Of a stretch of DNA of 64,000 bases, positions 2,472 to 62,884 are shown piece after piece. Where the stretch lies: NCBI RefSeq assembly GCF_003019035.1, contig NZ_CP027447.1. One strand, written 5' to 3'. The notes under the pieces are model-generated. The model ran no database searches and had not been told where the DNA came from. It saw only the letters and a list, made by a program, of their open reading frames with translations. A program made the translations under genes and the position numbers. Within the stretch, counting starts at the first letter, position 1. The number at the start of each line of letters is the position of its first letter. This stretch comes from Escherichia coli (lineage in GTDB: Bacteria > Pseudomonadota > Gammaproteobacteria > Enterobacterales > Enterobacteriaceae).

Positions 2472-3524
2472 TCAAAGTTCCGCGTACATGCGACCGGGGT
2501 TAAACACGCCGCAAGGGTCGAGCTGCTGTTTAAGCTGCTGGTGATAGCGGAATAAAGGAGCCGGTAGCGGGGCAAAGCCACCATCTCCGGCACTAAAGCG
2601 GGTCGCATGACCGCCCGCGTTGCGGGCGATGCGATGGATTTGATTGTCATCGGCTGTCGATTTCAGCCAGCGTAGCGCCCCGCCCCAGTCGATCAGTTGC
2701 TCGCCGGGTAAATCTATCATCGGCGCATCGCTGGGTAAGGAAATGCGCCATAAGGTACCTGGTAACGAGAAGAACGGCAGTTGTTGTTCACGCAATTGCT
2801 GCCAGAACTGACCCGCAACCTCTTCGCCCCCCAGCAGTTCACGCGCTGCTTTTACCGATCCTTCGCCGCCCTCAAGGCGGATCCACAACGCATTGTCGAA
2901 GTAACATAAGCCACTAATGGGTAATGGCTGGAGTTGCCACTGGGCGATTTCATTCATGGCTTCTTGCAGGCTGATTTCCCGACGCAGGCTCAGGGAGGCG
3001 CGCGGTCGCGGTAACACTTTCATCGAGATTTCAGTGAGCACGCCAAGACAACCGTAGCTTCCGGCCATTAACCGTGAGAGATCGTATCCGGCAACGTTTT
3101 TCATCACTTCACCACCAAAACGCAGATGTTTTCCAGTGCCGGTAATGATGCGCGTGCCGAGGACAAAATCGCGGACCGAACCGCTCCACGGGCGACGCGG
3201 CCCCGCCAGCCCGCAGGCGACCATCCCGCCCCAGGTGGCTTCTTCACCATAATGTGGCGGCTCGCAGGGGAGCATTTGCCCGGCGCTCTCCAGCGCCGCT
3301 TCAATCGCCACCAGCGGCGTTCCGGCACGAGCGGTTATCACCAGCTCGGTCGGGTCGTAATTAACAATGCCGCGATGACAACGCACATCCAGCGTTTGCC
3401 CGGTGACAGGACGACCTAAAAAGGCTTTGCTATTGCTGCCCTGAATCACCAGCGGCGTTTTATCGCTAATCGCCTGATTCACCTGCTCCAGCAGCGCCTG
3501 GCTGTAATCACACTCGCGTAGCAT
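2472..3524 (-). CDS. glcE: glycolate oxidase FAD-binding subunit
   Basis: 350-aa ORF, FAD-binding PCMH-type domain; 1-nt overlap with glcD stop. Confidence 0.9.
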   Translation of the reverse strand: MLRECDYSQALLEQVNQAISDKTPLVIQGSNSKAFLGRPVTGQTLDVRCHRGIVNYDPTELVITARAGTPLVAIEAALESAGQMLPCEPPHYGEEATWGGMVACGLAGPRRPWSGSVRDFVLGTRIITGTGKHLRFGGEVMKNVAGYDLSRLMAGSYGCLGVLTEISMKVLPRPRASLSLRREISLQEAMNEIAQWQLQPLPISGLCYFDNALWIRLEGGEGSVKAARELLGGEEVAGQFWQQLREQQLPFFSLPGTLWRISLPSDAPMIDLPGEQLIDWGGALRWLKSTADDNQIHRIARNAGGHATRFSAGDGGFAPLPAPLFRYHQQLKQQLDPCGVFNPGRMYAEL

Positions 3525-7530: not shown

Positions 7531-9282
7531 TTGATATCCAATTTTTTCGTGGTGTATATGTCTAATAAAATCTTTACGCATTCCCTACCTATGCGCTATG
7601 CCGATTTTCCAACGCTGGTTGATGCTTTGGACTATGCCGCTCTGAGTAGCGCTGGAATGAATTTTTATGACAGACGTTGCCAACTTGAAGATCAACTGGA
7701 ATATCAGACGTTAAAAGCGCGTGCCGAAGCTGGTGCGAAGCGGTTGTTATCGCTGAACCTGAAAAAAGGCGATCGCGTGGCACTGATTGCCGAAACCAGT
7801 AGCGGGTTCGTAGAGGCTTTTTTTGCCTGCCAGTATGCCGGCTTAGTCGCCGTCCCGTTGGCGATTCCCATGGGCGTCGGTCAGCGGGATTCCTGGAGCG
7901 CCAAGCTGCAGGGTTTACTGGCAAGTTGCCAGCCCGCAGCCATTATCACTGGTGATGAGTGGTTGCCACTGGTCAATGCCGCGACGCATAACAACAACCC
8001 CGAATTACATGTTTTAAGCCACGCCTGGTTTAAGGCATTACCGGAAGCCGATGTTGCGCTCCAGCGTCCAGTTCCGAACGATATCGCCTACCTCCAGTAC
8101 ACCTCCGGCAGCACCCGTTTTCCCCGTGGCGTCATTATCACCCATCGCGAAGTGATGGCTAATCTACGTGCTATAAGCCACGATGGCATAAAATTACGCC
8201 CTGGCGACCGCTGCGTCTCCTGGCTGCCTTTCTACCATGATATGGGACTGGTCGGCTTTCTCCTGACCCCCGTCGCCACGCAGCTTTCAGTAGATTATTT
8301 GCGCACTCAGGATTTTGCCATGCGTCCTCTGCAATGGCTTAAATTGATCAGTAAAAATCGCGGCACCGTTTCCGTTGCGCCGCCGTTTGGCTATGAATTG
8401 TGCCAGCGCCGCGTGAATGAAAAAGATCTCGCTGAACTGGATCTTTCCTGCTGGCGCGTCGCTGGTATTGGTGCAGAACCCATCTCCGCAGAACAACTCC
8501 ATCAATTCGCTGAATGTTTCCGTCAGGTCAACTTTGACGATAAAACTTTCATGCCGTGCTACGGACTGGCAGAAAATGCGCTGGCTGTCAGCTTCTCTGA
8601 TGAAGCTTCCGGGGTTGTGGTTAACGAAGTGGATCGCGACATCCTCGAATATCAGGGCAAAGCCGTCGCGCCGGATGCTGAAACACGCGCCGTATCGACT
8701 TTCGTCAACTGCGGTAAAGCGTTGCCGGAACATGGCATTGAAATCCGCAATGAAGCAGGTATACCTGTCGCGGAACGTGTGGTAGGCCATATTTGCATCT
8801 CCGGCCCTAGCCTGATGAGCGGTTACTTTGGCGACCAGATTTCACAAGACGAGATTGCCGCGACGGGCTGGTTAGACACCGGCGACCTCGGTTATCTGCT
8901 GGACGGTTATCTGTATGTCACCGGACGCATTAAAGATCTGATTATTATTCGTGGCCGTAATATCTGGCCGCAGGATATTGAATATATTGCGGAACAGGAA
9001 CCGGAAATTCATTCTGGCGATGCGATTGCTTTTGTTACCGCCCAGGAAAAAATCATTTTGCAGATCCAGTGTCGGATCAGCGATGAAGAACGTCGCGGGC
9101 AGCTTATCCACGCGCTGGCAGCACGGATCCAAAGCGAATTTGGTGTGACCGCGGCTATCGATCTGTTGCCGCCCCACAGTATTCCCCGAACGTCCTCCGG
9201 CAAGCCTGCCCGTGCGGAAGCGAAAAAACGTTATCAGAAGGCTTATGCTGCAAGCCTTCATGTGCAGGAATCCCTGGCATGA
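7531..9282 (+). CDS. fatty acyl-AMP ligase / acyl-ACP synthetase (AMP-binding superfamily)
   Basis: 583-aa ORF with adenylation motif YTSGSTRFPRGV and C-terminal SSGKPAR-type motif; start may be 7558 or 7591; stop overlaps next start (ATGA). Confidence 0.8.
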   Translation: MISNFFVVYMSNKIFTHSLPMRYADFPTLVDALDYAALSSAGMNFYDRRCQLEDQLEYQTLKARAEAGAKRLLSLNLKKGDRVALIAETSSGFVEAFFACQYAGLVAVPLAIPMGVGQRDSWSAKLQGLLASCQPAAIITGDEWLPLVNAATHNNNPELHVLSHAWFKALPEADVALQRPVPNDIAYLQYTSGSTRFPRGVIITHREVMANLRAISHDGIKLRPGDRCVSWLPFYHDMGLVGFLLTPVATQLSVDYLRTQDFAMRPLQWLKLISKNRGTVSVAPPFGYELCQRRVNEKDLAELDLSCWRVAGIGAEPISAEQLHQFAECFRQVNFDDKTFMPCYGLAENALAVSFSDEASGVVVNEVDRDILEYQGKAVAPDAETRAVSTFVNCGKALPEHGIEIRNEAGIPVAERVVGHICISGPSLMSGYFGDQISQDEIAATGWLDTGDLGYLLDGYLYVTGRIKDLIIIRGRNIWPQDIEYIAEQEPEIHSGDAIAFVTAQEKIILQIQCRISDEERRGQLIHALAARIQSEFGVTAAIDLLPPHSIPRTSSGKPARAEAKKRYQKAYAASLHVQESLA

Positions 9283-10193
9283 ATCAAACTGTCGCGGTGA
9301 CGGGCGCTACCGGGTTTATCGGTAAATATATTATCGATAACCTGCTCGCCCGCGGCTTTCACGTTCGCGCATTGACGCGTACTGCCCGTGCTCACGTCAA
9401 TGACAATCTCATCTGGGTGCGCGGTTCTCTGGAAGATACTCATTCACTTAGCGAACTGGTTGCCGGAGCCAGCGTGGTGGTCCATTGCGCCGGGCAAGTG
9501 CGCGGGCACAAAGAAGAGATTTTTACCCGCTGTAACGTTGACGGCAGCCTGCGACTGATGCAAGCGGCAAAAGAGAGCGGCTTTTGCCAACGTTTTCTGT
9601 TTATCTCTTCGCTGGCGGCGCGCCATCCCGAACTCTCCTGGTACGCAAATTCCAAACACGTCGCCGAACAACGGCTGACTGCAATGGCTGATGAAATTAC
9701 GCTGGGCGTTTTTCGCCCGACAGCCGTGTATGGTCCCGGCGATAAAGAGTTAAAACCGCTGTTTGACTGGATGCTGCGCGGCCTGCTGCCACGACTTGGT
9801 GCGCCAGATACACAACTCTCTTTCCTGCACGTCACCGATTTTGCGCAAGCAGTGGGTCAGTGGTTAAGCGCCGAAACTGTACAGACGCAAACCTATGAAT
9901 TATGCGATGGCGTCGCTGGCGGCTATGACTGGCAACGCGTACGACAGCTTGCCGCCGAAGCCCGTTGTGGTTCTGTGCAGATGGTTGGCATTCCTCTGCC
10001 GGTACTCACCTGCCTTGCGGATATCAGTACTGCGTTGAGTCGCCTGGCAGGTAAAGAACCTATGCTGACCCGCTCGAAAATTCGTGAATTAACCCACGCC
10101 GACTGGTCGGCAAATAATAACCGTATTTCTGAAGATATTAATTGGTTTCCCGGGATTAGCCTGGAACACGCATTACGCAACGGGCTATTTTGA
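9279..10193 (+). CDS. NAD(P)-dependent epimerase/dehydratase-fold reductase
   Basis: 304-aa ORF; N-terminal Rossmann motif VTGATGFIGKYI; translationally coupled to upstream ligase. Confidence 0.8.
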   Translation: MNQTVAVTGATGFIGKYIIDNLLARGFHVRALTRTARAHVNDNLIWVRGSLEDTHSLSELVAGASVVVHCAGQVRGHKEEIFTRCNVDGSLRLMQAAKESGFCQRFLFISSLAARHPELSWYANSKHVAEQRLTAMADEITLGVFRPTAVYGPGDKELKPLFDWMLRGLLPRLGAPDTQLSFLHVTDFAQAVGQWLSAETVQTQTYELCDGVAGGYDWQRVRQLAAEARCGSVQMVGIPLPVLTCLADISTALSRLAGKEPMLTRSKIRELTHADWSANNNRISEDINWFPGISLEHALRNGLF

Positions 10194-10224
10194 TTGTCTT
10201 GTTTAAAGGTGTGTTAACGTTTCT

Positions 10225-10473
10225 ATGGTAAATCGTGAAATAGTAATGGATTACATCCTTTCCTGTTTACAGGATTTGGTCGAAAACGGTGTGGAAATTA
10301 AGCCCAACAGCGATCTCGTCAACGATCTTGGCCTGGAGTCGATCAAAGTGATGGATCTCTTAATGATGCTGGAAGACAGATTCGATATTTCCATTCCTAT
10401 TAATATTCTGCTGGATGTCAAAACCCCTGTGCAATTAATGGAAACTCTACTTCCATGGCTGGAGAATAAATAA
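10225..10473 (+). CDS. acyl carrier protein (dedicated)
   Basis: 82-aa acidic ORF with phosphopantetheine-attachment-type motif DLGLESIKVMDL; stop overlaps next start (TAATG); start may be 10246. Confidence 0.75.
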   Translation: MVNREIVMDYILSCLQDLVENGVEIKPNSDLVNDLGLESIKVMDLLMMLEDRFDISIPINILLDVKTPVQLMETLLPWLENK

Positions 10474-11645
10474 TGGGGCTATACGATAAATATGCGCGCC
10501 TTGCTGGCGAGCGACTGCAATTTAGTGACAACGGGTTAACGCCGTTTGGTACCTGTATTGATGAAGTGTATTCCGCCACCGAAGGTCGGATCGGCAATAA
10601 AAAAGTGATTCTGGCCGGGACCAATAATTATCTCGGTTTAACCTTTAATCATGATGCCATCGCCGAAGGTCAGGCAGCGTTAGCGGCCCAAGGCACCGGC
10701 ACCACCGGTTCTCGTATGGCTAATGGCAGTTATGCGCCGCATCTGGCGTTAGAGAAAGAGATTGCCGAGTTTTTCAATCGCCCTACCGCTATCGTTTTTT
10801 CAACCGGTTATACCGCTAATTTAGGCGTCATCAGCGCACTTGCCGACCATAACGCCGTGGTGTTACTGGATGCCGACAGCCACGCCAGTATTTATGACGC
10901 CTGTTCTCTCGGTGGCGCGGAAATTATTCGTTTCCGCCATAACGATGCTAAAGATCTGGAACGGCGCATGGTTCGCCTCGGTGAACGGGCGAAAGAGGCG
11001 ATTATCATCGTTGAGGGCATCTACAGCATGCTCGGTGACGTTGCGCCGTTAGCGGAAATTGTTGATATCAAACGTCGTCTCGGTGGTTATTTGATTGTCG
11101 ATGAAGCGCATTCGTTTGGCGTGTTAGGCGCAACGGGGCGCGGACTGGCTGAAGCCGTTGGCGTTGAAGATGATGTGGATATTATCGTTGGTACTTTCAG
11201 TAAAAGTCTGGCCTCGATTGGCGGTTTTGCTGTCGGTTCGGAAGCGATGGAAGTGTTGCGCTACGGCAGCCGCCCGTATATTTTTACCGCCTCTCCTTCT
11301 CCGTCCTGCATTGCGACCGTGCGCTCGTCGTTAAGAACCATTGCCTCACAACCAGAGCTGCGGCAAAAGCTGATGGATAACGCCAACCATCTGTATGACG
11401 GTCTGCAAAAACTGGGTTATGAGTTAAGTTCACATATTAGCCCGGTAGTGCCGGTAATAATCGGTTCGAAAGAGGACGGTTTACGCATCTGGCGCGAGCT
11501 TATTTCGCTGGGCGTTTATGTGAATCTTATCCTGCCACCTGCCGCGCCTGCAGGCATCACTCTGCTGCGCTGTAGCGTAAACGCTGCCCACAGTCATGAG
11601 CAAATCGATGCCATCATTCAGGCATTTGCTACTCTGAAGCAGTAA
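10473..11645 (+). CDS. PLP-dependent alpha-oxoamine synthase (serine palmitoyltransferase / KBL / BioF family)
   Basis: 390-aa ORF; class-II aminotransferase fold with PLP-lysine motif GTFSKSLASIGGF; K-12 bioF and kbl are located elsewhere. Confidence 0.8.
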   Translation: MGLYDKYARLAGERLQFSDNGLTPFGTCIDEVYSATEGRIGNKKVILAGTNNYLGLTFNHDAIAEGQAALAAQGTGTTGSRMANGSYAPHLALEKEIAEFFNRPTAIVFSTGYTANLGVISALADHNAVVLLDADSHASIYDACSLGGAEIIRFRHNDAKDLERRMVRLGERAKEAIIIVEGIYSMLGDVAPLAEIVDIKRRLGGYLIVDEAHSFGVLGATGRGLAEAVGVEDDVDIIVGTFSKSLASIGGFAVGSEAMEVLRYGSRPYIFTASPSPSCIATVRSSLRTIASQPELRQKLMDNANHLYDGLQKLGYELSSHISPVVPVIIGSKEDGLRIWRELISLGVYVNLILPPAAPAGITLLRCSVNAAHSHEQIDAIIQAFATLKQ

Positions 11646-11679
11646 TGTGAGCCCGCCGTGGTGTTGCGCCACGGCGGGT

Positions 11680-12759
11680 TTAATGTTGTCTGTCATACCA
11701 ATACACCAGGCTCAACGCCATCAGGACAAACGCTACCGGTAAACCGAGCGCGGTAACAGGTGCACTCAACGCAAATAGCAACCCCAGATTGACCATGATT
11801 TGATAGCTGATCCAGGTGAGTAAGCCAACGATGACGCCTACAGCGAGACGGCTACCCATCCCTGGCGAGCGCGGGGCGCTAAAGGTGAACGGCACAGCCA
11901 GCAAAATCATCGCCAGGGTCAGGATCGGTTGCCCCAGTTTTTCCCACAGTGCAAGGCGGTATTCGCTGCTGGGTTGTCCGGTTTCCTGCAAATAATGGAT
12001 GTAATGATTAAGCTGACGGACAGAAAAAGTATTCCCCGGCATCGATAACTCTTCAAGATCCATACTGGTGAAGGCCGATTGCCAGGCAAGATTATCTGAT
12101 GTTTCCAGCGTTTCTTTGCCATTCAACCATTTTTTATGATTCACACCATGCAGGATCCACGTTTTGTCGTCTTCAATGGAGGCACTGCGTGCAAAAATGT
12201 AGGATTCGAGCGAGAGATCGTCGCGATAATGAAATATCTCCACGCCCACAGGCTGGCCCTGCTCGTTCAGCGATTTCACCGTCACAAATTCATTACCGCG
12301 CCTGGCCCAAAGCATATTGCCGGTAATGTCATCGTCCTCCCCCAACGCGGTGGCAGTCGATTTGATTTGCAGCGCCTGTTGCTGCAATGGCGACGCCACC
12401 CACTCATCTATCGCGCCTAACGAAACAGTCCACAATATCCCGGCAACCAGCGCCACCAGTGCAATACGGAAGATAGAAAACCCAGTGCTGCGAATGGCGG
12501 TAAGCTCACTGTTTTTCGATAACTGCCCCAGGCCAACAATCCCTCCCAATAATGCGATAAATGGCGAAAGTTCGACCAGTGTACGCGGTAAGGTCATCAG
12601 CACCACCAGCACCGCCTGAGTCCAGCGATAACCGCCCGGGCTGACATCATCCAGTTCGTTAATCAGGTTGAAGGTGGTAAAAAGCGGCAGCAATAGCCCT
12701 GCGGCGGCGGCAAAACCGAGAAAGAGATGACGGATTAAATAGCGACTGAAAACATTCAT
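11680..12759 (-). CDS. LptG-like permease (YjgP/YjgQ family)
   Basis: Multi-pass membrane ORF; start set at MNVFSRYLIRH so that it overlaps the upstream gene stop by 4 nt (longest ORF extends to 12840). Confidence 0.7.
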   Translation of the reverse strand: MNVFSRYLIRHLFLGFAAAAGLLLPLFTTFNLINELDDVSPGGYRWTQAVLVVLMTLPRTLVELSPFIALLGGIVGLGQLSKNSELTAIRSTGFSIFRIALVALVAGILWTVSLGAIDEWVASPLQQQALQIKSTATALGEDDDITGNMLWARRGNEFVTVKSLNEQGQPVGVEIFHYRDDLSLESYIFARSASIEDDKTWILHGVNHKKWLNGKETLETSDNLAWQSAFTSMDLEELSMPGNTFSVRQLNHYIHYLQETGQPSSEYRLALWEKLGQPILTLAMILLAVPFTFSAPRSPGMGSRLAVGVIVGLLTWISYQIMVNLGLLFALSAPVTALGLPVAFVLMALSLVYWYDRQH

Positions 12760-13826
12760 CGGGAAAATTTCTGCAGCAAAGAGAAGTCGCGTGCGACCAG
12801 CATCAGCAGGCCCATTAGCATGAGTCCGGGTACTAACCACAAACCAGGAATGAGGGGAATCGCACCGTTAGCCACCAGCGTACGGCAGACGTCGCCGCCA
12901 TAAAAAATGGCAACAAACAGCAACGTCAGTGGCAATAACGTTGAAAATCGCCCTTGCCGCGGTTTTACCCGACTTAATGAAATGGCCAGCAGCGCCATCA
13001 ACAATGCGGTCAGGCCACGGCTTTGTCGCCATTGCAGTTCGGCATGATCGGCTGGAAAGACGGAGCGCGCCAGCTCCGTGACCGATTTTGCTTTGCGTTT
13101 GACGTTAGGGCTTTGATCCAGCTGATTCAGATGTAATTGCAGATTACGGTAGATCTGTTCGTTGTCGTCACGCCCCTGATGATCGAGAAGATAGGCGGTC
13201 CCGTTATGCAACATAACGGTCGGTTTCTCAGGTGATGGGTCAACCACATCAACCGAACGGGCGCGGAAAATGCGGGTTCGATTGGCAGTAGAAGTATAAA
13301 TCAGCGCGTCAGTCAGGCGATTATTATCCTGATCAACCGTCTGCGAAAGGATCATTCGTCCGTTATCGTTAGTGTTAAATTTCTTTGCCCGCAACTGGCG
13401 AACATCCAGCTCCGACTGCGACTGTTGCTCCAGTTGATAAATCTGCGCATAAGCCCACGGCCGACCATACATCGACAGAAGGGTGACAAAAATACTTAGC
13501 GGTATCGCCAGATAAAGAACGGCTTTGTACAAGCGTCCCGGACTGCCCCCCGCCGCAGAGATAGCGGTAATTTCCGAGTCGGTATACATCTGCCCTAGCG
13601 TCACGCCAACTGACACATACAGACCAACAGGTAACAACATCTCCAGTGCAATCAGCACTTTGTAGAAAACGATATCCAGCACAACATCAAGAGCTAAGGT
13701 CCCATTTGCCGCTTCGGTCAGATAACGCTGTGCGGAGTAGCTGGCGAAAATAAAGATCAGAAAACCGACGATAATCAGCACCAGACGGCGCGTACCACGC
13801 ATGATGTAGTGTTCAACCAGCTTCAT
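12756..13826 (-). CDS. LptF-like permease (YjgP/YjgQ family)
   Basis: 356-aa ORF, N-terminal TM helices, large periplasmic loop, C-terminal TM helices; paired with LptG-like gene. Confidence 0.7.
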   Translation of the reverse strand: MKLVEHYIMRGTRRLVLIIVGFLIFIFASYSAQRYLTEAANGTLALDVVLDIVFYKVLIALEMLLPVGLYVSVGVTLGQMYTDSEITAISAAGGSPGRLYKAVLYLAIPLSIFVTLLSMYGRPWAYAQIYQLEQQSQSELDVRQLRAKKFNTNDNGRMILSQTVDQDNNRLTDALIYTSTANRTRIFRARSVDVVDPSPEKPTVMLHNGTAYLLDHQGRDDNEQIYRNLQLHLNQLDQSPNVKRKAKSVTELARSVFPADHAELQWRQSRGLTALLMALLAISLSRVKPRQGRFSTLLPLTLLFVAIFYGGDVCRTLVANGAIPLIPGLWLVPGLMLMGLLMLVARDFSLLQKFSR

Positions 13827-13856
13827 CTCACTAACACCCTCAATCCTTTGAATTTT

Positions 13857-14420
13857 TTATTCATTGATCAGTTTCTGCGCCAGCGCAATGACATGATCTA
13901 CCTCTTCCGGCGTCAGGCTGCCGTCCTTTGCCCACTGAATTTGCCCGTCTTTATTCAGCACCAGAATGGTTGAACTCTGCTCCGGCAACCGCCAGGCAAC
14001 GCGTCCCAGTCCATTGCCGTCAATAACGAATTGCGCCCACGGATAGCGGCGTTTATTTTTTTCGATTTTGCCAACGACAAAATAGCCAGTACCGAAGATG
14101 GCATCATCGGTGTTCACAATGGTGGTGGGCTGAAAACGATCCTGCGGAAAGTTTGCCGCTTCAACCGCTTTAATTAACAGTGAGTTCTTTTTCTTCGCCG
14201 ACTTACGCCCGGCGATATACTGAATAATGCGGACTTTTCCCGCCAGCTGTGTGCTGTTCCACTTTTGGTAGTGAATTTCGTCGTCGCTATTCAGAAGCAG
14301 CTCGCCGCCTTCCTGGATATAAACGGGGGTAACCGTTTTGCCAGTGACGAAATTGTGTGCCTGCACACCCTGGGCTAAGAGCATGATAATCAGCGCAATA
14401 ATCAAACGAGATGACATCAT
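13857..14420 (-). CDS. secreted/periplasmic protein of unknown function (possibly thioredoxin-like fold)
   Basis: 187-aa ORF with N-terminal signal peptide MMSSRLIIALIIMLLAQGVQA; fold assignment is a guess. Confidence 0.55.
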   Translation of the reverse strand: MMSSRLIIALIIMLLAQGVQAHNFVTGKTVTPVYIQEGGELLLNSDDEIHYQKWNSTQLAGKVRIIQYIAGRKSAKKKNSLLIKAVEAANFPQDRFQPTTIVNTDDAIFGTGYFVVGKIEKNKRRYPWAQFVIDGNGLGRVAWRLPEQSSTILVLNKDGQIQWAKDGSLTPEEVDHVIALAQKLINE

Positions 14421-14428
14421 TGCTCCGG

Positions 14429-15253
14429 TTATAGCGGAAAACGCGAAATCAGCAGCTCTAAGCGCTGGCGAATATCGCTATCCAGCGCCACCGGTGCATC
14501 ATACGACTGGCGGTTTTCCATATCATCCGCCACCATGTCGTCGTGTTTATCCCCCATCAGGCCATTAATGGCGGCGAGGAAGCGGGAAATCTGTAACGCC
14601 TCTTTATTTTCAGGATCAAGCGATCTTAAGGTGTCGTAATAAGAAACCTGCTGGCTGATGATTTTTCGCACATCATGAAATTCCCTGCCGGTGAGTCGCG
14701 GTTTGGCAATTATCTCTTTCAGGGTATGCATTTGCTTTTGCCGATAGGCAATAAAACCGCTTACGCTTTCTAACTGGCTATGGCGTAATGAATAGTTCAC
14801 CAACGACCAGACCGGAGAGCTTAAATAAACCCGTAACAGGTTGCCGTAATACGACACAATATTTTTCTTACCGTTACGAAAACCGTCCTGAAAACGCCCC
14901 AAAAAAACGGTCGTTTTGCCGAATAAAAATCCGGCCTGATGCTTCTTTAAATACAGCCGTTGCGCAAAACGCAGGTGCTTGTAGCGCGCTCGCATGTATT
15001 TATACTTTTTGCGCTCATCGTCGGTAAGTATTTTGCCTTTTGCTTGTTTCAGCGTTAAGCGAAGTAACTCTTTGCGATTTACACCATCCAGCCAGAATCT
15101 CAAACATAAGGCATAATTGTCATGAATAATCTCCGGTGAACAGCGCAAAGTGATCGTTGGCGGCAAGCTAACCTGTGTGTCAATAACATCATTATCATCA
15201 ACAGCAATAAATAAACGCTCAATGACCTCAAGTGGAAAGTATTTTCTCATCAT
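14429..15253 (-). CDS. hypothetical basic protein, no recognisable domain
   Basis: 274-aa ORF; start overlaps yghQ stop (ATGA coupling) so likely translated. Confidence 0.55.
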   Translation of the reverse strand: MMRKYFPLEVIERLFIAVDDNDVIDTQVSLPPTITLRCSPEIIHDNYALCLRFWLDGVNRKELLRLTLKQAKGKILTDDERKKYKYMRARYKHLRFAQRLYLKKHQAGFLFGKTTVFLGRFQDGFRNGKKNIVSYYGNLLRVYLSSPVWSLVNYSLRHSQLESVSGFIAYRQKQMHTLKEIIAKPRLTGREFHDVRKIISQQVSYYDTLRSLDPENKEALQISRFLAAINGLMGDKHDDMVADDMENRQSYDAPVALDSDIRQRLELLISRFPL

Positions 15254-16602
15254 TGGAATTTTTCTCCGACTCCGTTATAGACCAATAAATGGCGACGGAG
15301 AAAAGTCCTTAATGTCGGTGCTAACGACAGGATCACATCCAGACATTGACCACCGAAATAAGCAAATGCAGCCCCCATTACGCCAAACAGATGACAAAAC
15401 ATAAACAACAAAATAACGTAAGCTAACGATGCAATAGTTTGTGCTATCAAAAAAGCGCGCTGTTTTCCCGCCATCAATAGCAATGACTCCTGAGGGAAGC
15501 CCAGCATCGAGATCACAATTGCGCCCAGCATCACCTGAATCAGGTCATACGCTTCGAGATACTTAACGCCAAACACCAGCGAAATAAGCGGCTTGCCGAC
15601 GATCAACACCGCGAGCGCCACCAGAATTCCGATTCCGCCCGCCAGTAAACCTGACTTCACGCCTAACAACCACGGTCTGGTGGTGCGCGGATCTAAACGC
15701 ATCACCTCTGGGTAAAAACTTTTGCCCAGTAAACCCGCTGGCGTTCCGGCGGCGTCGAAGAATGTCATGGCGATTTTAAATAACCCGGCGGCAGCGGGTC
15801 CTAACACGATCCCCACCAGCACTGTGCTGCACGAGTTACGCGCCGACCAGATGGAGTGGGCAATGTTGGTTGACCAGACAAAACTCCACGCGCCTTTGAT
15901 GTGTCGGGCAGACTCAAACAGATTCAATTTGAACGCGTTATGGATATTTCTGCGGCGTAATTCGCGCGCGGCAAACCACCAGTACATGGTGCCGCCAACC
16001 AGATTCGACACGTACCAGGCAATAACAAAGCCCGCAAAACCAAAGTCAAAATACCAGGCTACGACGCTCCCCGCTGCGCGCAGAAAAGGTTTCGTCGCTT
16101 GCTGTACAGCAATTAGATCGAAGCGATCTACCGCACGCAGAATGCCGGTCGGCGTGGAGGAAGCCATTGAAGGAATGAGCGTGCAATACAGCGCTGCCAG
16201 CCAAAAGCTTTGGTCATCCAGACCTAATGAATGGGAAAGAAAAGGGAGTAAGGCAATGCCGCCGACAATCGCCACCGCGCCGCTGACGATATCCAGCGAG
16301 AAGGAAAATGAGACGACATTGCGGAATTGCTGCGGATTATTGTTGGTTAATGCTGGTGTTCCGTACTGAACCACCAGCTGCCATGTCTGAAACTTAATAA
16401 AATCGCTGATCGACTTGGCGTACGATTGTACAATCACCAGTACGCCAAACATGGCGGGCGTCATCCCTTTACCGGCACACGAGAGCGCCAACAGACCCAG
16501 TAAAGCGCTCACGACATTACTGGAGCCTAACCAGGCGCTATTGCGAATAATGGTGCGAAACGCGCCATCTGCAAACCAATGTTTGATGTTAAAACCCGCC
16601 AA
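15250..16602 (-). CDS. yghQ: MOP-superfamily (Wzx/MurJ-like) flippase, full length
   Basis: 450-aa polytopic membrane ORF; recognised as YghQ but longer than the 355 aa I recall for K-12; start uncertain. Confidence 0.75.
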   Translation of the reverse strand: MAGFNIKHWFADGAFRTIIRNSAWLGSSNVVSALLGLLALSCAGKGMTPAMFGVLVIVQSYAKSISDFIKFQTWQLVVQYGTPALTNNNPQQFRNVVSFSFSLDIVSGAVAIVGGIALLPFLSHSLGLDDQSFWLAALYCTLIPSMASSTPTGILRAVDRFDLIAVQQATKPFLRAAGSVVAWYFDFGFAGFVIAWYVSNLVGGTMYWWFAARELRRRNIHNAFKLNLFESARHIKGAWSFVWSTNIAHSIWSARNSCSTVLVGIVLGPAAAGLFKIAMTFFDAAGTPAGLLGKSFYPEVMRLDPRTTRPWLLGVKSGLLAGGIGILVALAVLIVGKPLISLVFGVKYLEAYDLIQVMLGAIVISMLGFPQESLLLMAGKQRAFLIAQTIASLAYVILLFMFCHLFGVMGAAFAYFGGQCLDVILSLAPTLRTFLRRHLLVYNGVGEKFQ

Positions 16603-16647: not shown

Positions 16648-17406
16648 TTAAGTTAAACTTCGGCGGTCAGAAACGATGGCAACCAGAGAAACCGCCTTCT
16701 GTGCCTGTTCCAGCACTTCGCTGTAAGGCGCTCTGGAATCAATCTCAAGAATTTTTGTGCCGTTATAGCCAATCGTCGACATGACGCCGATTTTGTCCTG
16801 CAGCTCGGCATAGTCATGGTCAGGCTTGCGGGAGATGGCAGTATCAATATCAATCCCCAAACGAATGATTAATTCAGGACGGTATTGCGCCATTTGTTGG
16901 TATAAACGCCGTTCGCGCTGCGCCAGAAACATGCTGATTTTCCCGGTCGCACGTTCGACGCCGATCCCCGGTCCGTCATAATAAAAGCCCGAAATTTCAG
17001 CCTGCGGGAAGCGATCGCTGACCACCAGAACGCCACTTTGCGCCAGTCGCTGAACCTTGCGTAGATTCGCCATTCTTCGCAGCGAGAAGCAGTACATAAT
17101 CACCGCCGCCCATACCGCCGGAGATTTGGTTTTCATGCTTTGGGTTTTCGAGGATTTGGCCGCCAGTCGCCGTTCGAGCCAGACGCCAACCAACGGCAAT
17201 CGTTTGATTTTGTCGCCGTCTTCGCCCGAGAGCAGCCCCAGATAGCGCCGCTCGGTTTGCCAGTGTTGTTGCAGCGATTTCACGAGGTCGGTGGTCAGTG
17301 TGGATTTACCGGTGCCATCACACCCGACCACCGCAATCAGCCCCGGAATGTAGTTGGGCTGCGGCGCGGTTGTACTATTAACAGTTTGTGTTTGTAGTGC
17401 GTCCAT
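16648..17406 (-). CDS. yghR: P-loop NTPase/kinase-like protein
   Basis: Walker A GCDGTGKST; conserved SDRFP and ARKPDH motifs shared with yghS and yghT; no ABC signature LSGGQ. Confidence 0.8.
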   Translation of the reverse strand: MDALQTQTVNSTTAPQPNYIPGLIAVVGCDGTGKSTLTTDLVKSLQQHWQTERRYLGLLSGEDGDKIKRLPLVGVWLERRLAAKSSKTQSMKTKSPAVWAAVIMYCFSLRRMANLRKVQRLAQSGVLVVSDRFPQAEISGFYYDGPGIGVERATGKISMFLAQRERRLYQQMAQYRPELIIRLGIDIDTAISRKPDHDYAELQDKIGVMSTIGYNGTKILEIDSRAPYSEVLEQAQKAVSLVAIVSDRRSLT

Positions 17407-17437: not shown

Positions 17438-18151
17438 TCAGGAAAGCGCAGCGTGAATTGCGCGTAGTGACGCTTGCAGAATTTCATCGGCTGGTTGCCG
17501 ACCATCCAGTTCAAGGATCTTTGCGCCATTGAATGTCAGTTGCGGCGTAACGGCGATTTTTTCCTGTAACGCTGCCAGTTGGTGGTCAGGTTTACGCGCA
17601 AACGCGGTTTGTTCATCAATGCCAAGACGAATCAACAATACGGGCAAATAAGACGCCATCCATTGGTACAGCTTCAGCTCGCGCTGCCTTAACATTTTTA
17701 TCCAACCGTTACCGCCCGTGGTTTTTGCCAATTGCGGGCCATCAAAGCGAAAACCCGGCACTTCAACCTGCGGGTAGCGGTCGGTGATGAGCAGATAGCC
17801 TTGCTGGCTTTTACACAACATTTTGCGAAACTTGTACGCCCGCCAGCAGGAAAGCAGATAGATAACCAGCGCAGTAATATTGCCAGGCGGTGTGGAGGGC
17901 TTTTCGTGCACATGTGCCGCTTTACTTCGCAGATAACGCCCAAAAGGTGCGCCAATAACAGGGAGCTGTGAAATCCATTCGCCAATTCGCCCGGACGATT
18001 GCCCGAGATAAATGTGTTCTGTTGGCATTGTTGCTGCCAGTTCATTTACCAGGCTTGCCGTGAGGGTCGATTTACCTGAACCATCACATCCTACAATGGC
18101 AATAACACGCACTGGCGTGGAATTAATTATTGACATATTACGTTGATTCAC
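17438..18151 (-). CDS. yghS: P-loop NTPase/kinase-like protein (paralogue of yghR)
   Basis: Walker A GCDGSGKST; TDRYP and ARKPDH motifs. Confidence 0.8.
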   Translation of the reverse strand: MNQRNMSIINSTPVRVIAIVGCDGSGKSTLTASLVNELAATMPTEHIYLGQSSGRIGEWISQLPVIGAPFGRYLRSKAAHVHEKPSTPPGNITALVIYLLSCWRAYKFRKMLCKSQQGYLLITDRYPQVEVPGFRFDGPQLAKTTGGNGWIKMLRQRELKLYQWMASYLPVLLIRLGIDEQTAFARKPDHQLAALQEKIAVTPQLTFNGAKILELDGRQPADEILQASLRAIHAALS

Positions 18152-18324: not shown

Positions 18325-19017
18325 ATGCAGTCAATAACACCTCCATTAATTGCCGTTATTGGTAGCGATGGTTCAGGCAAGTCAACGGTGTGTGAACATC
18401 TCATTACCGTTGTCGAAAAATATGGTGCTGCCGAAAGAGTTCATTTAGGAAAACAGGCCGGAAATGTCGGTCGTGCAGTGACAAAATTACCGTTGATGGG
18501 AAAATCCTTACATAAAACAATTGAACGAAATCAGGTGAAAACAGCAAAAAAATTGCCAGGACCAGTTCCGGCGCTGGTAATTACAGCGTTTGTCGCCCGT
18601 CGCTTACTGCGCTTTCGTCATATGCTTGCCTGTCGTCGTCGCGGGTTAATTGTTCTAACCGACCGTTATCCTCAGGACCAAATTCCTGGCGCTTACGATG
18701 GTACAGTGTTCCCACCTAACATTGAAGGTGGTCGTTTTGTCTCATGGCTGGCAAGCTAGGAACGTAAAGCGTTTCACTGGATGGCGAGCCATAAACCGGA
18801 TCTGGTCATCAAACTCAATGTTGACCTTGAAGTTGCCTGCGCGCGTAAACCCGACCATAAACGGGAATCGCTGGCGAGGAAGATTGCCATAACGCCACAG
18901 TTAACCTTTGGCGGTGCACAACTGGTTGATATCGATGCTAATCAGCCACTGGAAAAGGTGCTGATTGATGCAGAAAAAGCGATTACGGATTTTATGACCG
19001 CGCGTGGTTATCACTAG
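18325..19017 (+). pseudogene. yghT: P-loop NTPase/kinase-like protein interrupted by an in-frame TAG at 18757-18759
   Basis: 144-aa and 78-aa ORFs are in the same frame; the 693-nt span is 231 codons (230 aa plus stop) with one internal TAG; Walker [10 protein letters not shown]. Confidence 0.6.
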
Positions 19018-19027
19018 TCAAAAATGG

Positions 19028-19058
19028 AAATGCCCGATCGCCAGGACCGGGCATTTTC
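19028..19058. terminator. stem-loop terminator between convergent yghT and pitB
   Basis: aaatgcccg / cgggcattt inverted repeat with 11-nt loop followed by TTTTC. Confidence 0.5.
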
Positions 19059-19065
19059 AGGAAGG

Positions 19066-20565
19066 TTAAATCAACTGCAATGCTATCCAGTACAACCCAC
19101 CAGAAAGAAAAATCGCCGCCGGTAAAGTAAACACCCACGCCATCAGGATGCTGGTTACCGTTTTACGCTGTAACCCACCGCCGTCCACCACCATCGTCCC
19201 TGCTACCGCAGACGAGAGGACGTGTGTTGTGGAGACGGGCATCCCAATATAACTGGCAAGGCCGATAGACACTGCCGCCGTCATTTGTGCCGCCATGCCT
19301 TGCGCATACGTCATGCCGCGCTTACCAATCTTCTCACCGATGGTCATCGCTACACGACGCCAGCCAATCATGGTGCCGATGCCGAGCGCCAGTGCTACCG
19401 CCATGATGATCCACACCGGTGCGTACTCAATGGTGCTTAACATATCGCTGCGCAGTTTTTTCAGCAGGTTCTGGTCTTCTTTACTGACGCCTGGCAGTTT
19501 CGCCAGCTTCGCGGAGGTATCAGAGATGCACAGCATAATGCGGCGCAGCTGGCTGCGCTGACTCACGCTTAACGGCTCGTAACTTTCCATATTGCCTGGC
19601 AGCATCGTTTTAACGCGCGCAATCGCATCAAAGGTATTTGCCGGATGACAGTGAAACTCTGTTACTTGCGTGCCATCAGTCGATGTCGCAGGCAATGGAG
19701 GTTCCATCGTAATCAACTTCTGCGGCAGTTCAGGATGCTGTTGCAGGTAGTGTTCGAAGTTGGTGACGGCATCGCGGGTACGGGTAATTTCATAGCCGGA
19801 CGCGTTCATATTGACGACGAAGCCAGCAGGGGCAATCCCCACCAGTACCAGCATCACCAGGCCGATCCCTTTCTGCCCGTCGTTCGCGCCGTGCGAAAAC
19901 GCCACGCCCGCAGCGGAAACAATCAGCGCAATACGCGTCCAGAATGGCGGCTTACGTTTGCCTTTTTTCTTTTTGCGATCTTCCGGAATGCGGTGAATAC
20001 GGTCACGCTTTTTCGTCCCGCTCCAGAAACGGCGCAGCAGGAAAATCAGACCACCCGCAATGACCAGGCCGACGATAGGGGAAACAATCAGCGAGGAGAA
20101 AATTTTGGTCACTTCACGCAGGTTTAACGCATCCATCACCGATGAGCCGGTTAACAGCGCGTTGGTTAAACCGATGCCGATAATCGCACCAATCAAGGTA
20201 TGCGAACTGGAGGCCGGTAAACCAAAGAACCACGTTCCCAGGTTCCAGATAATCGCCGCCAGCAGCATGGAAAAGACCATCGCCAGGCCGTGAGTTGACC
20301 CCATATTCAGCAACAAATCGGTTGGCAACATATGGACAATGGCATAGGCAACGCTAAGTCCGCCTAGCAATACGCCAAAAAAGTTAAAAAATGCCGCCAT
20401 CACCACAGCAAGTTGTGGTTGCATGGCACGAGTATAAATAACGGTTGCCACCGCATTCGCCGTGTCATGAAAACCATTGATTGCTTCGTAGAACAACACA
20501 AATGCCAGAGCAAGTAATAACAAAAGCCCTGTGTATATATCAAGGCCAACAAATAAATTTAGCAT
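19066..20565 (-). CDS. pitB: low-affinity inorganic phosphate transporter
   Basis: 499-aa ORF with PitA/PitB-type sequence ([35 protein letters not shown]); position next to yghT. Confidence 0.9.
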
Positions 20566-20806
20566 ATATTAGATTACGCCATTTTGAATTTACGAACGGA
20601 CGCATTATCAGTGACTTTAACGGCATGGGCAAAGTGAAATATCATTTTTTAACGATAAAAAGCGTGTTATTTCTTGTGTATCAGACAATAAGCATTCATT
20701 CAAAATCTTTAGAAATAATCAAAACACAAGTATTCCACTGGTTAATATATTCATATATTAAATAAATAAATATTGGAATATATAAATGTTGAATGTTTTG
20801 ATTAAT

Positions 20807-20841
20807 CCCCGAACTGATTATTCTTCATAATCAGTACGGGG
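20807..20841 (-). terminator. imperfect stem-loop downstream of gss
   Basis: ccccgaactgattat / ataatcagtacgggg inverted repeat just 3' of the gss stop. Confidence 0.35.
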
Positions 20842-20856
20842 TTGCTACAACATGTA

Positions 20857-22716
20857 TTACTCTTTCACCACAATTAGCGGTTCAATATCACTCTCTTTTT
20901 TGATGACCAGTGATTCATCACCGCGCAAACACGTCCCACCGTAGTTGCCGCCAACGGTGAAGGTACATACCTGAATGTATTTACCGTCCACTTTCGGCAA
21001 ACACCACAGTTGCTGATAGATGTTTTTCTGCTCGGCAAATTTACCGCTGGTTTTGTCCAGCACCTCTTCATGATGGCTGACCAGGTCGATATTGCTACCA
21101 CAGCGACCGGCGATCGGTTTCACTGCGTAACCTGTTTTTACCAGTTCATCATTAACAGTGAAATCGGTATCCAGCAGGTAACGATGGTGCGGGAACAGCG
21201 ACCAGAGGATCGGCAGAATCGCTTTGTTGCCGGGGATCACAGTCCACAGAGGTTCAAAGACCAGCACTTCCGGGCGCAGCAATACGTCGATAAGACGCAC
21301 TTCATTTTGCGGATGACCGGTACGGATCGGCACCGCAGCAAACTCACGGTCGCTGACTTCACGAATCTGATCAAACGCGGTTTCCCACGCCCAGGTTTTC
21401 CACACGCAGTTAACCAGTCGCCCTTCCCCATCAATCAGTTGCCCGGCAGCATCCCAGCCCAGTTCATCCAACCCACGCAAGATACGCGTTTCAAAGCCCG
21501 CCTGGTGCAGCGCCTGCTCCATAAACTGCGCGTGATAGTTTTCCTCGATATCTTTGTCCTGCATGATATGGACAAACGGACGTGCACGACTGTGTTTCCA
21601 GGCACCAGCCAGTTCGTTAATCAGCCCTTCCGCAGGATTGAAGCCGTTGCCTTTATAGCCCTGCTCCGCCCAACGTTCGAGGATCAAGCCCGCTTCGGTA
21701 TGACAGGAGGCGGAATCGGCGTTGTATTCGTAGACCTTCAGGCCACGTTCGTCCATGCAGAAATCCATACGACCGGTGATCATATGGTGACGGCGACGCT
21801 GCCAGGAGAGACGCAAACGTGGCCAGAGGATTTTCGGAATGTCGAACAGCGCCAGCAGGTTGTCATCTTTTAGCACCTTGTCGGTGGCGTGAAGATACAT
21901 CAGGTGCAGCTCGTTGGTGGCTTTAATCAGCTCCTGCTCTGCGCTCTCGGTAATGGTGTAGTAATGATACGGATCCTGATTGATCACCTGACCGTTGGCC
22001 TGCACGTAGGCATTTTGTAGCGGATCTTTTTCATCCAGCCATTTACCGTCAAACTGACCTTTGTTTTCCAGACGCGCTCCGCTGATTTTCAGCAGCTCGC
22101 CTGCAATTTCCGGCTGCGGTAAGCTGTAGTCGGTATCTTCCGTCTGGATCATCCAGCCCAGAATGGTGGTGTCATCAAACGTGTCTTTAAGGGTATAGCA
22201 GCCGTTTTCGACCACCATCTCCAGCTCGCGTGTCCACTGTTGCCCTTGCGGCAACGGGGAATGAATCACGTTCTGTTCCGCAATACGGACTTTGTTGCCA
22301 TGCAATTGAGTAATGATGGCGACATGGCCAGTGTCTTTAAATTCACCGCCTTTATCCCAGATAAGAAGCGCGCCCGCGACCGGTGCACGCGGCGAGCCAT
22401 TAGGAAATGCCTGCAATGGCAGGATGTTGTCATTAACCACTTCACGCAGGAAGCGCAGCGAGAAAATCTCCCACGCCATACCCACGTCAGTGAAGACCAC
22501 ACCGTAATTCAGAAAGAGAAAACGGCGAGCAAATTCAACGCATTGCCATTTGTGGCCCATATATTCGTCGTCGATATAGCTACGGAATACGGCGTCATCT
22601 TCGTATTCCTGCGGATCGAGAGAACTGTAATCTGAAGAGTAGATTGCTACCCCACCTGGGGCGTAGCCCAATAATGTCCCGAACGGGGCATCCTGGCTGG
22701 TCGTTCCTTTGCTCAT
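20857..22716 (-). CDS. gss: bifunctional glutathionylspermidine synthetase/amidase
   Basis: ORF begins MMSKGTTSQDAPFG; start placed at second Met to give 619 aa. Confidence 0.9.
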   Translation of the reverse strand: MSKGTTSQDAPFGTLLGYAPGGVAIYSSDYSSLDPQEYEDDAVFRSYIDDEYMGHKWQCVEFARRFLFLNYGVVFTDVGMAWEIFSLRFLREVVNDNILPLQAFPNGSPRAPVAGALLIWDKGGEFKDTGHVAIITQLHGNKVRIAEQNVIHSPLPQGQQWTRELEMVVENGCYTLKDTFDDTTILGWMIQTEDTDYSLPQPEIAGELLKISGARLENKGQFDGKWLDEKDPLQNAYVQANGQVINQDPYHYYTITESAEQELIKATNELHLMYLHATDKVLKDDNLLALFDIPKILWPRLRLSWQRRRHHMITGRMDFCMDERGLKVYEYNADSASCHTEAGLILERWAEQGYKGNGFNPAEGLINELAGAWKHSRARPFVHIMQDKDIEENYHAQFMEQALHQAGFETRILRGLDELGWDAAGQLIDGEGRLVNCVWKTWAWETAFDQIREVSDREFAAVPIRTGHPQNEVRLIDVLLRPEVLVFEPLWTVIPGNKAILPILWSLFPHHRYLLDTDFTVNDELVKTGYAVKPIAGRCGSNIDLVSHHEEVLDKTSGKFAEQKNIYQQLWCLPKVDGKYIQVCTFTVGGNYGGTCLRGDESLVIKKESDIEPLIVVKE

Positions 22717-62551: not shown

Positions 62552-62884
62552 CTAATAGCAAAATATAAACCGTCCCCCAAAAAGCCACCAACCACAACCC
62601 AGACAAATAACGAGCGAGAATACATATAGCCAAAACTCGAACATTTCCCGCATAAAGAGTTTTCTTAAGATAAGAATAATAAGTGGCGTCAGAAGAAAAA
62701 ATGCTGCAATCATTGCTTGCAATATACGATCTTCGCCTGAAACGGAAGGTATACTGCAAATATTGTCTCCCGACTCAAGCATCCAGTCATACTTATTGAA
62801 AGCAAAAAAAGCATCTATTAACCAATAAGTAAGCATTATGTATAACAGAGCTTCAAATATTGTTTGAATTTTATGCTTTAACAT
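62552..62884 (-). CDS. ygiZ: small inner membrane protein
   Basis: 110-aa hydrophobic ORF. Confidence 0.8.
   Translation of the reverse strand: MLKHKIQTIFEALLYIMLTYWLIDAFFAFNKYDWMLESGDNICSIPSVSGEDRILQAMIAAFFLLTPLIILILRKLFMREMFEFWLYVFSLVICLGCGWWLFGGRFIFCY

Follow-up and report, generated by a model that had tools for sequence, protein, structure and literature searches.

A recurrent amber codon at a former Dcm site of Escherichia coli yghT, most likely a very young pseudogene

The closest described counterpart of the change reported here comes from lacI, where amber hotspots at the second C of CCAGG are about tenfold over-represented, according to the part of a review (PMC12606429) that treats the work of Coulondre et al. 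1978. Methylated bases are mutation hotspots (PMC4938668), and both Dcm methylation and the very-short-patch (VSP) repair carried out by Vsr have been described (PMC3527292). Other counterparts are found in yghT itself. A pseudogene with an ‘internal stop’ is recorded by PGAP in O55:H7 strains, as we read in CB9615 (G2583_RS31310) and 2013C-4465 (A5955_RS30905), two of the five complete genomes concerned, and the gene is knocked out in nature by the nonsense alleles G79* and L108*, by IS1 and by outright absence.

The yghT locus analysed here lies in a 64,000-nt stretch of E. coli DNA, referred to below as the window. It shares with the lacI hotspots the CCAGG motif, the second C as the base struck, the change from C to T, the replacement of CAG (Gln) by TAG (amber) and recurrence in independent lineages. 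It differs in being a fixed natural allele of wild clones, at a site presumed to be methylated, rather than part of a laboratory mutant collection, and in that the natural variation of the window contains no general excess of changes at Dcm sites. With the O55:H7 pseudogene it has in common the TAG at codon 145, the split into 144 and 78 aa and an undamaged downstream frame, whereas the haplotype (8 nt, with I133V in the 144-aa fragment), the phylogroup background and the independent origin set the two apart. The other natural knock-outs inactivate the same, apparently dispensable gene, but at different positions and by different types of mutation. Our reading, to which we assign a probability of about 0.82, is that the window carries a real, clonally inherited change of Gln145 to amber, that yghT is most likely a non-functional and very young pseudogene, and that the change most likely arose by deamination of 5-methylcytosine (5mC).

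The interrupted yghT frame and its relatives

Translation of positions 18325–19017 on the plus strand bore out the frame claimed in the original prediction, with 231 codons including the terminal TAG, an ATG start and a lone internal TAG at 18757–18759, flanked as gca agc TAG gaa cgt (Table 1). The list of open reading frames agrees with the proposed division into 144 aa (18325–18759) and 78 aa (18781–19017), the latter beginning at the next ATG. The length and residue that the prediction gave for the K-12 protein were also right: yghT of MG1655 (b2986) spans 693 nt, encodes 230 aa and reads CAG (Gln) at codon 145, within the sequence AGCCAGGAA.

Table 1 Features at and around yghT in the window
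Feature	Position	Strand	Basis
yghT frame with one premature amber codon, most likely a young pseudogene	18325..19017	+	orthologue annotated yghT in SCU-301, EC958, 536, LR-28 and K-12
5' ORF, 144 aa plus TAG; retains Walker A P-loop and D113-R114-Y115	18325..18759	+	
Walker A / P-loop GSDGSGKS, residues 13–20	18361..18384	+	translation; weak P-loop NTPase matches all centred on residues 8–30
Premature amber TAG, ancestral CAG (Gln145); T at 18757 derived	18757..18759	+	
CTAGG, a lost Dcm site (CCAGG) whose inner cytosine, target of Dcm, was at 18757	18756..18760	.	Dcm sites of relatives
3' remnant ORF, 78 aa from Met153	18781..19017	+	ORF list
12-bp hairpin, terminator-like, between convergent yghT and pitB	19028..19056	.	
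yghS, intact P-loop paralogue, divergent from yghT	17438..18151	-	
pitB, convergent with yghT	19066..20565	-	

We used megablast to compare the yghT region with 5,426 complete E. coli genomes. It was found in 4,735 of them, none 100% identical to the window, and the closest was SCU-301 (NZ_CP051751.1), isolated from a rectal swab of a healthy student; the next-best complete genomes were ~98.5–99.0% identical over 25-kb blocks. When all 64,000 positions were compared, the window and SCU-301 differed by six substitutions and no indels, with three of the six at homopolymer edges, and between 18200 and 19150 the sole difference was T in the window versus C in SCU-301 at 18757, which corresponds to position 792144 of the SCU-301 record. 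Polarizing the six differences with LR-28 and 536 as outgroups showed that just two of the derived bases are in the window (18757, yghT Q145*; 62578, ygiZ W103G) and the other four in SCU-301. C at 18757 is found in LR-28, 536, K-12 and EC958 and in all complete gene carriers except five; aligning the codon across E. coli genomes, as had been proposed, gave CAG in more than 4,700 other complete carriers. The intact ancestral YghT, identical to the SCU-301 protein, is present on 168 contigs. Because only the T distinguishes the gene from that of SCU-301 and the outgroups have C, the yghT stop is a single, very recent, lineage-specific change from C to T in an otherwise untouched gene.

The same allele has been recovered repeatedly. 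A lookup in a collection of 15 billion proteins (NCBI and Logan) placed the exact 144-aa product on 106 contigs and the 78-aa remnant on 109. Logan contigs of runs SRR28455285, SRR28454730, SRR28455157 and SRR27538930 equal the window over 4.5–20.4 kb, and these four run assemblies carry both the T at 18757 and the window’s base at 19549. A scan of JGI metagenome contigs for a 27-mer carrying the T gave 0 matches. The TAG allele is that of a repeatedly sequenced clone, and with the base change and its polarity established we regard it as practically certain that this is a real, inherited nonsense mutation. The original description of a strain-specific nonsense mutation is therefore right about the change of CAG to TAG, most likely inactivating the P-loop paralogue yghT, and too narrow about its distribution, since the allele lies on 106 contigs and the same stop is found in O55:H7.

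The window’s other derived base, at 62578, changes codon 103 of ygiZ (minus strand) from TGG to GGG, giving W103G in the DUF2645 protein YgiZ, and is located at the edge of a C5/A5 homopolymer pair. Because exactly this variant protein is found on 86 contigs, the longest of which is shared with the 144-aa yghT fragment, G103 is genuine and approximately coincides with the clone that has the yghT TAG. At 3233, in codon 98 of glcE (minus strand), it is SCU-301 that holds the derived base, with CCAGG converted to CCCGG (putative GlcE W98G) at the central base of a Dcm motif. Two of the six differences between the window and SCU-301 fall inside CCWGG motifs, which cover 1.36% of the window.

Two differences in gene content were also seen in these comparisons. 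At 7558–16602, between yghO and yghR, the window contains a nine-gene cluster adjoined by yghR (16648–17406) and yghS (17438–18151). Its genes encode a fatty acyl-AMP ligase, an NAD-dependent epimerase/dehydratase, an acyl carrier protein, a serine palmitoyltransferase (spt), LptF-like and LptG-like permeases, a YtfJ-family protein, a hypothetical protein and a full-length, 450-aa polysaccharide-synthesis protein (yghQ), with the sphingolipid-type spt adjoining second copies of lptFG. The cluster is also present in SCU-301, LR-28 and 536; it is missing from K-12, which has IS5 at the spot beside a shortened yghQ. Between ygiQ and yqhH, LR-28 has two additional hypothetical genes (20590–22046 of its sequence; ~42,700 in the window) that the window, SCU-301 and 536 lack.

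Recurrence of the stop and its Dcm context

Complete genomes with the same stop were retrieved using a 41-mer centred on the T, which is unable to seed megablast on genomes carrying C. It matched exactly five: O55:H7 strains CB9615, RM12579, DEC5D and TB182A, plus 2013C-4465. Their TAG allele differs from that of the window at eight other positions, located both before and after the stop (18721 and 18795 being closest to it), and only the T sets it apart from the allele of the sister O55:H7 strain USDA5905. Because each TAG allele is nested in its own haplotype, Q145* has, judged from these haplotypes, two independent origins, one in the window’s clone and one in an O55:H7 subclade.

Nonsense alleles elsewhere in the gene were sought with a composite query that combined every nonsense 41-mer for six haplotype backgrounds, 155 distinct 41-mers in total and free of wild-type 28-mers. 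Across the 5,426 complete genomes this query detected only G79* (GGA to TGA; 26 genomes), L108* (TTA to TGA; 5 genomes) and Q145* (the 5 O55:H7 genomes). Together with the window there are four independent nonsense lineages, two of them at codon 145. Both G79* (G to T) and L108* (T to G) are transversions. G79* is the commonest yghT nonsense allele in complete genomes, and its 26 genomes have a K-12-like haplotype. It is likewise inside a Dcm motif (18556–18561; CCTGG to CCTTG), where it alters the G opposite the other strand’s methylated C, and does not have the signature of deamination.

In its ancestral form the sequence at 18756–18760 was CCAGG, a Dcm (CCWGG) site with 18757 as the inner cytosine, and the change at the site is from AGCCAGGAA to AGCTAGGAA. 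Dcm sites are found at 18556, 18685 and 18756 in the yghT of relatives; the third, present in SCU-301, EC958 and K-12, has been lost only in the TAG alleles of the window and O55:H7. A single-base change could create a stop in yghT in 82 ways, spread over 67 sites and including 14 transitions; of these, CAG to TAG at Q145 alone falls on a Dcm 5mC position. Six other CAG codons of the gene lie outside CCAGG. Because the dcm–vsr locus occurs in 5,367 of the 5,426 complete E. coli genomes, the clone of the window very probably has it as well, and we infer that the site is methylated in this strain. Spontaneous deamination of 5mC at 18757 would then have produced thymine and a T:G mismatch, which, if missed by the VSP repair of Vsr, would have turned CCAGG into CTAGG.

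Recurrence at the one Dcm nonsense site gives modest support for a hotspot and is suggestive rather than decisive, with the chance of a coincidence at codon 145 among the three other nonsense lineages being roughly 0.04–0.08. A general excess of transitions at Dcm 5mC positions was sought in the alignment of the window, LR-28 and 536, and none was found: between the window and LR-28, 3 of 358 such positions showed a transition, compared with 652 of 32,326 other G/C positions. Transitions between lineages were rarer at Dcm 5mC positions (0.6–0.8%) than at other G/C positions (2.0–2.2%), with p = 0.03–0.13 depending on the pair, and this deficit may be due to efficient or over-correcting VSP repair or to selection. 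Because there was no excess, the hotspot effect is not visible at the population level here, and we therefore treat 5mC deamination as a probable but far from assured origin of the yghT T.

The main competing account is an ordinary random transition to which methylation is irrelevant, with the coincidence in O55:H7 due to chance; yghT would still be a real pseudogene. This account gains from the lack of a Dcm 5mC excess, if anything a deficit, between lineages over 64 kb, and from the small basis of the recurrence, which comes from only four nonsense lineages at the chance level given above, with the other two alleles being transversions. What it leaves to luck is that the one nonsense site of 82 on a Dcm-methylated C is also the only one struck twice, in a species in which dcm–vsr is near universal and for which CCAGG-to-CTAGG amber hotspots are experimentally established (PMC12606429). 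We consider a random transition possible, if doubtful.

Translation of the interrupted gene and other readings

Under the preferred reading of a very young pseudogene, release factor 1 would end translation at codon 145 and leave a 144-residue fragment. The truncation drops the last 86 residues (145–230) while the P-loop and DRY motif are retained. The best match of YghT to a solved structure is the thymidylate kinase of T. maritima (3hjn), a weak hit (E 0.09), and in this weak alignment the stop falls after Walker A and D113-R114-Y115 and ahead of the part matched to the conserved PDLtfyiDVD strand and to the beginning of the LID. On that alignment the fragment would lack a core strand and, beyond it, a basic LID-like segment; with some of the core sheet and the protein’s last third gone, the 144-aa fragment is probably inactive. 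The TAG allele has no other lesion in the gene. The ATG of the 78-aa remnant is 22 nt past the stop, AGGA at 18758–18761 lies 19 nt upstream, and no Shine–Dalgarno sequence was found suitably spaced from the ATG at 18781, for which reason the remnant is probably untranslated or barely translated. No polar effect of the stop is expected because no gene on the same strand follows yghT.

A gene that still functions could in principle come about by readthrough of UAG145, whether by a supE-type tRNA-Gln(CUA), which restores the wild-type Gln, or by a near-cognate tRNA-Gln, or by cooperation of the 144-aa piece with a re-initiated 78-aa piece. The frame after the stop is undamaged in both TAG lineages, an ATG follows within 22 nt, and a suppressor inserting Gln would rebuild the native protein exactly. 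However, an intact frame is expected of a very recent mutation, with one derived change in the gene and two in 64 kb, and the stop is not conserved, the codon being other than CAG in only 5 of the 4,735 complete carriers. In addition, the 100 nt past the TAG fold no better than shuffled sequences (z = 0.38) and the ATG at 18781 is preceded by no usable Shine–Dalgarno sequence. There were no tRNA genes in the 64-kb window, and at the yghT locus Rfam returned nothing beyond a chance hit (E 0.63). With no structure, no Rfam family and no tRNA gene in the window, a recoding or readthrough signal was rejected, and retained function is very unlikely. Decay of the frame downstream of the TAG, which the original prediction had named, together with fixation of the TAG across a broad clade, as grounds for refutation, was seen in neither TAG lineage.

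Vsr cuts T:G mismatches in CTWGG/CCWGG context. Codon 145 might on this basis be a two-way hypermutable switch, in which Dcm methylation would drive CCAGG to CTAGG (off) and Vsr would bias replication errors back to CCAGG (on), so that repeated Q145* would represent switching, or selection for loss of yghT, and not one-way decay. The observations are compatible with such a switch: both TAG lineages have an intact frame past the stop, and the TAG allele makes up a large share of its own haplotype (106 contigs versus 168 with the intact protein). No reversion was seen, however, and the simpler reading of a young pseudogene fits all of these observations; we judge a switch to be quite improbable.

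The identity of the base in the two lineages could also reflect import of the T on a short gene-conversion tract from an O55:H7-like donor. None of the eight O55:H7-specific differences came along, which would require a tract of <74 bp, and each TAG allele is separated by a single base from the sister allele of its own lineage. Recombination from O55:H7 was rejected for want of donor SNPs flanking the T, and import is highly improbable.

Finally, an artefact with CAG as the true codon, such as a base miscalled in a long-read assembly because the Dcm motif is methylated, would suit the facts that nanopore reads err from base modifications at methylated motifs (PMC11610603), that 18757 is exactly a Dcm 5mC and that 0 complete RefSeq genomes match the window at 100%, but it is barely credible given the 144-aa product on 106 contigs, four SRA run assemblies identical to the window, T included, for up to 20 kb, and an O55:H7 TAG allele in 5 complete genomes and on 219 contigs. 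The sequencing error that the original prediction had listed as an option is ruled out by the four independent Logan run assemblies, and these and the contig counts led us to reject an error at the methylated motif after the homopolymer-edge differences had been weighed too.

Family assignment, dispensability and meaning

Family models place YghT only loosely. It scored 25.5 bits against TIGR00041 (cut-off 83.25) and 25.5 against NF005923 (cut-off 193), Pfam PF02223 gave E 0.43, and the Pfam matches cover a weak P-loop only; the 78-aa remnant searched alone against family models had no match. From these scores YghT would be a P-loop kinase-like NTPase at most. RefSeq/PGAP labels both yghS and yghT ‘dTMP kinase’. 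As an equivalog assignment for YghT this is not supported, with scores below the curated cut-offs, an insignificant Pfam match and a best PDB match at E 0.09, and the label looks like over-annotation of a distant P-loop kinase-like family. Among the literature mentioning yghT, we found no paper on its function.

The yghT region is absent from 691 of the 5,426 complete genomes (about 13%), and IS1 interrupts the gene in at least three genomes. AVS0247, AH21C062 and strain 21220 otherwise match the window at 99.7% in this region; an IS1 insertion divides their yghT, which is annotated as two thymidylate-kinase fragments, and represents a further independent route to loss of the gene. Because the region is missing from so many genomes, and because of the IS1 insertions and the nonsense alleles, yghT looks dispensable on these genome comparisons.

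The yghT of the window carries a real nonsense mutation, a known kind of event that most likely makes it an ordinary pseudogene, and the identical stop is already annotated as a pseudogene in O55:H7. Gene callers entered the 144-aa and 78-aa products as separate proteins; the locus should be annotated as a yghT pseudogene with an internal stop and not as two small genes. The T at 18757 could act as a marker SNP of the clone. For the biology of the gene, the four nonsense lineages, the IS1 insertions and the ~13% absence add to the evidence that yghT is dispensable. Codon 145 is a natural, twice-arisen case, in two unrelated E. coli clones, of what is most likely the textbook Dcm/5-methylcytosine amber hotspot.
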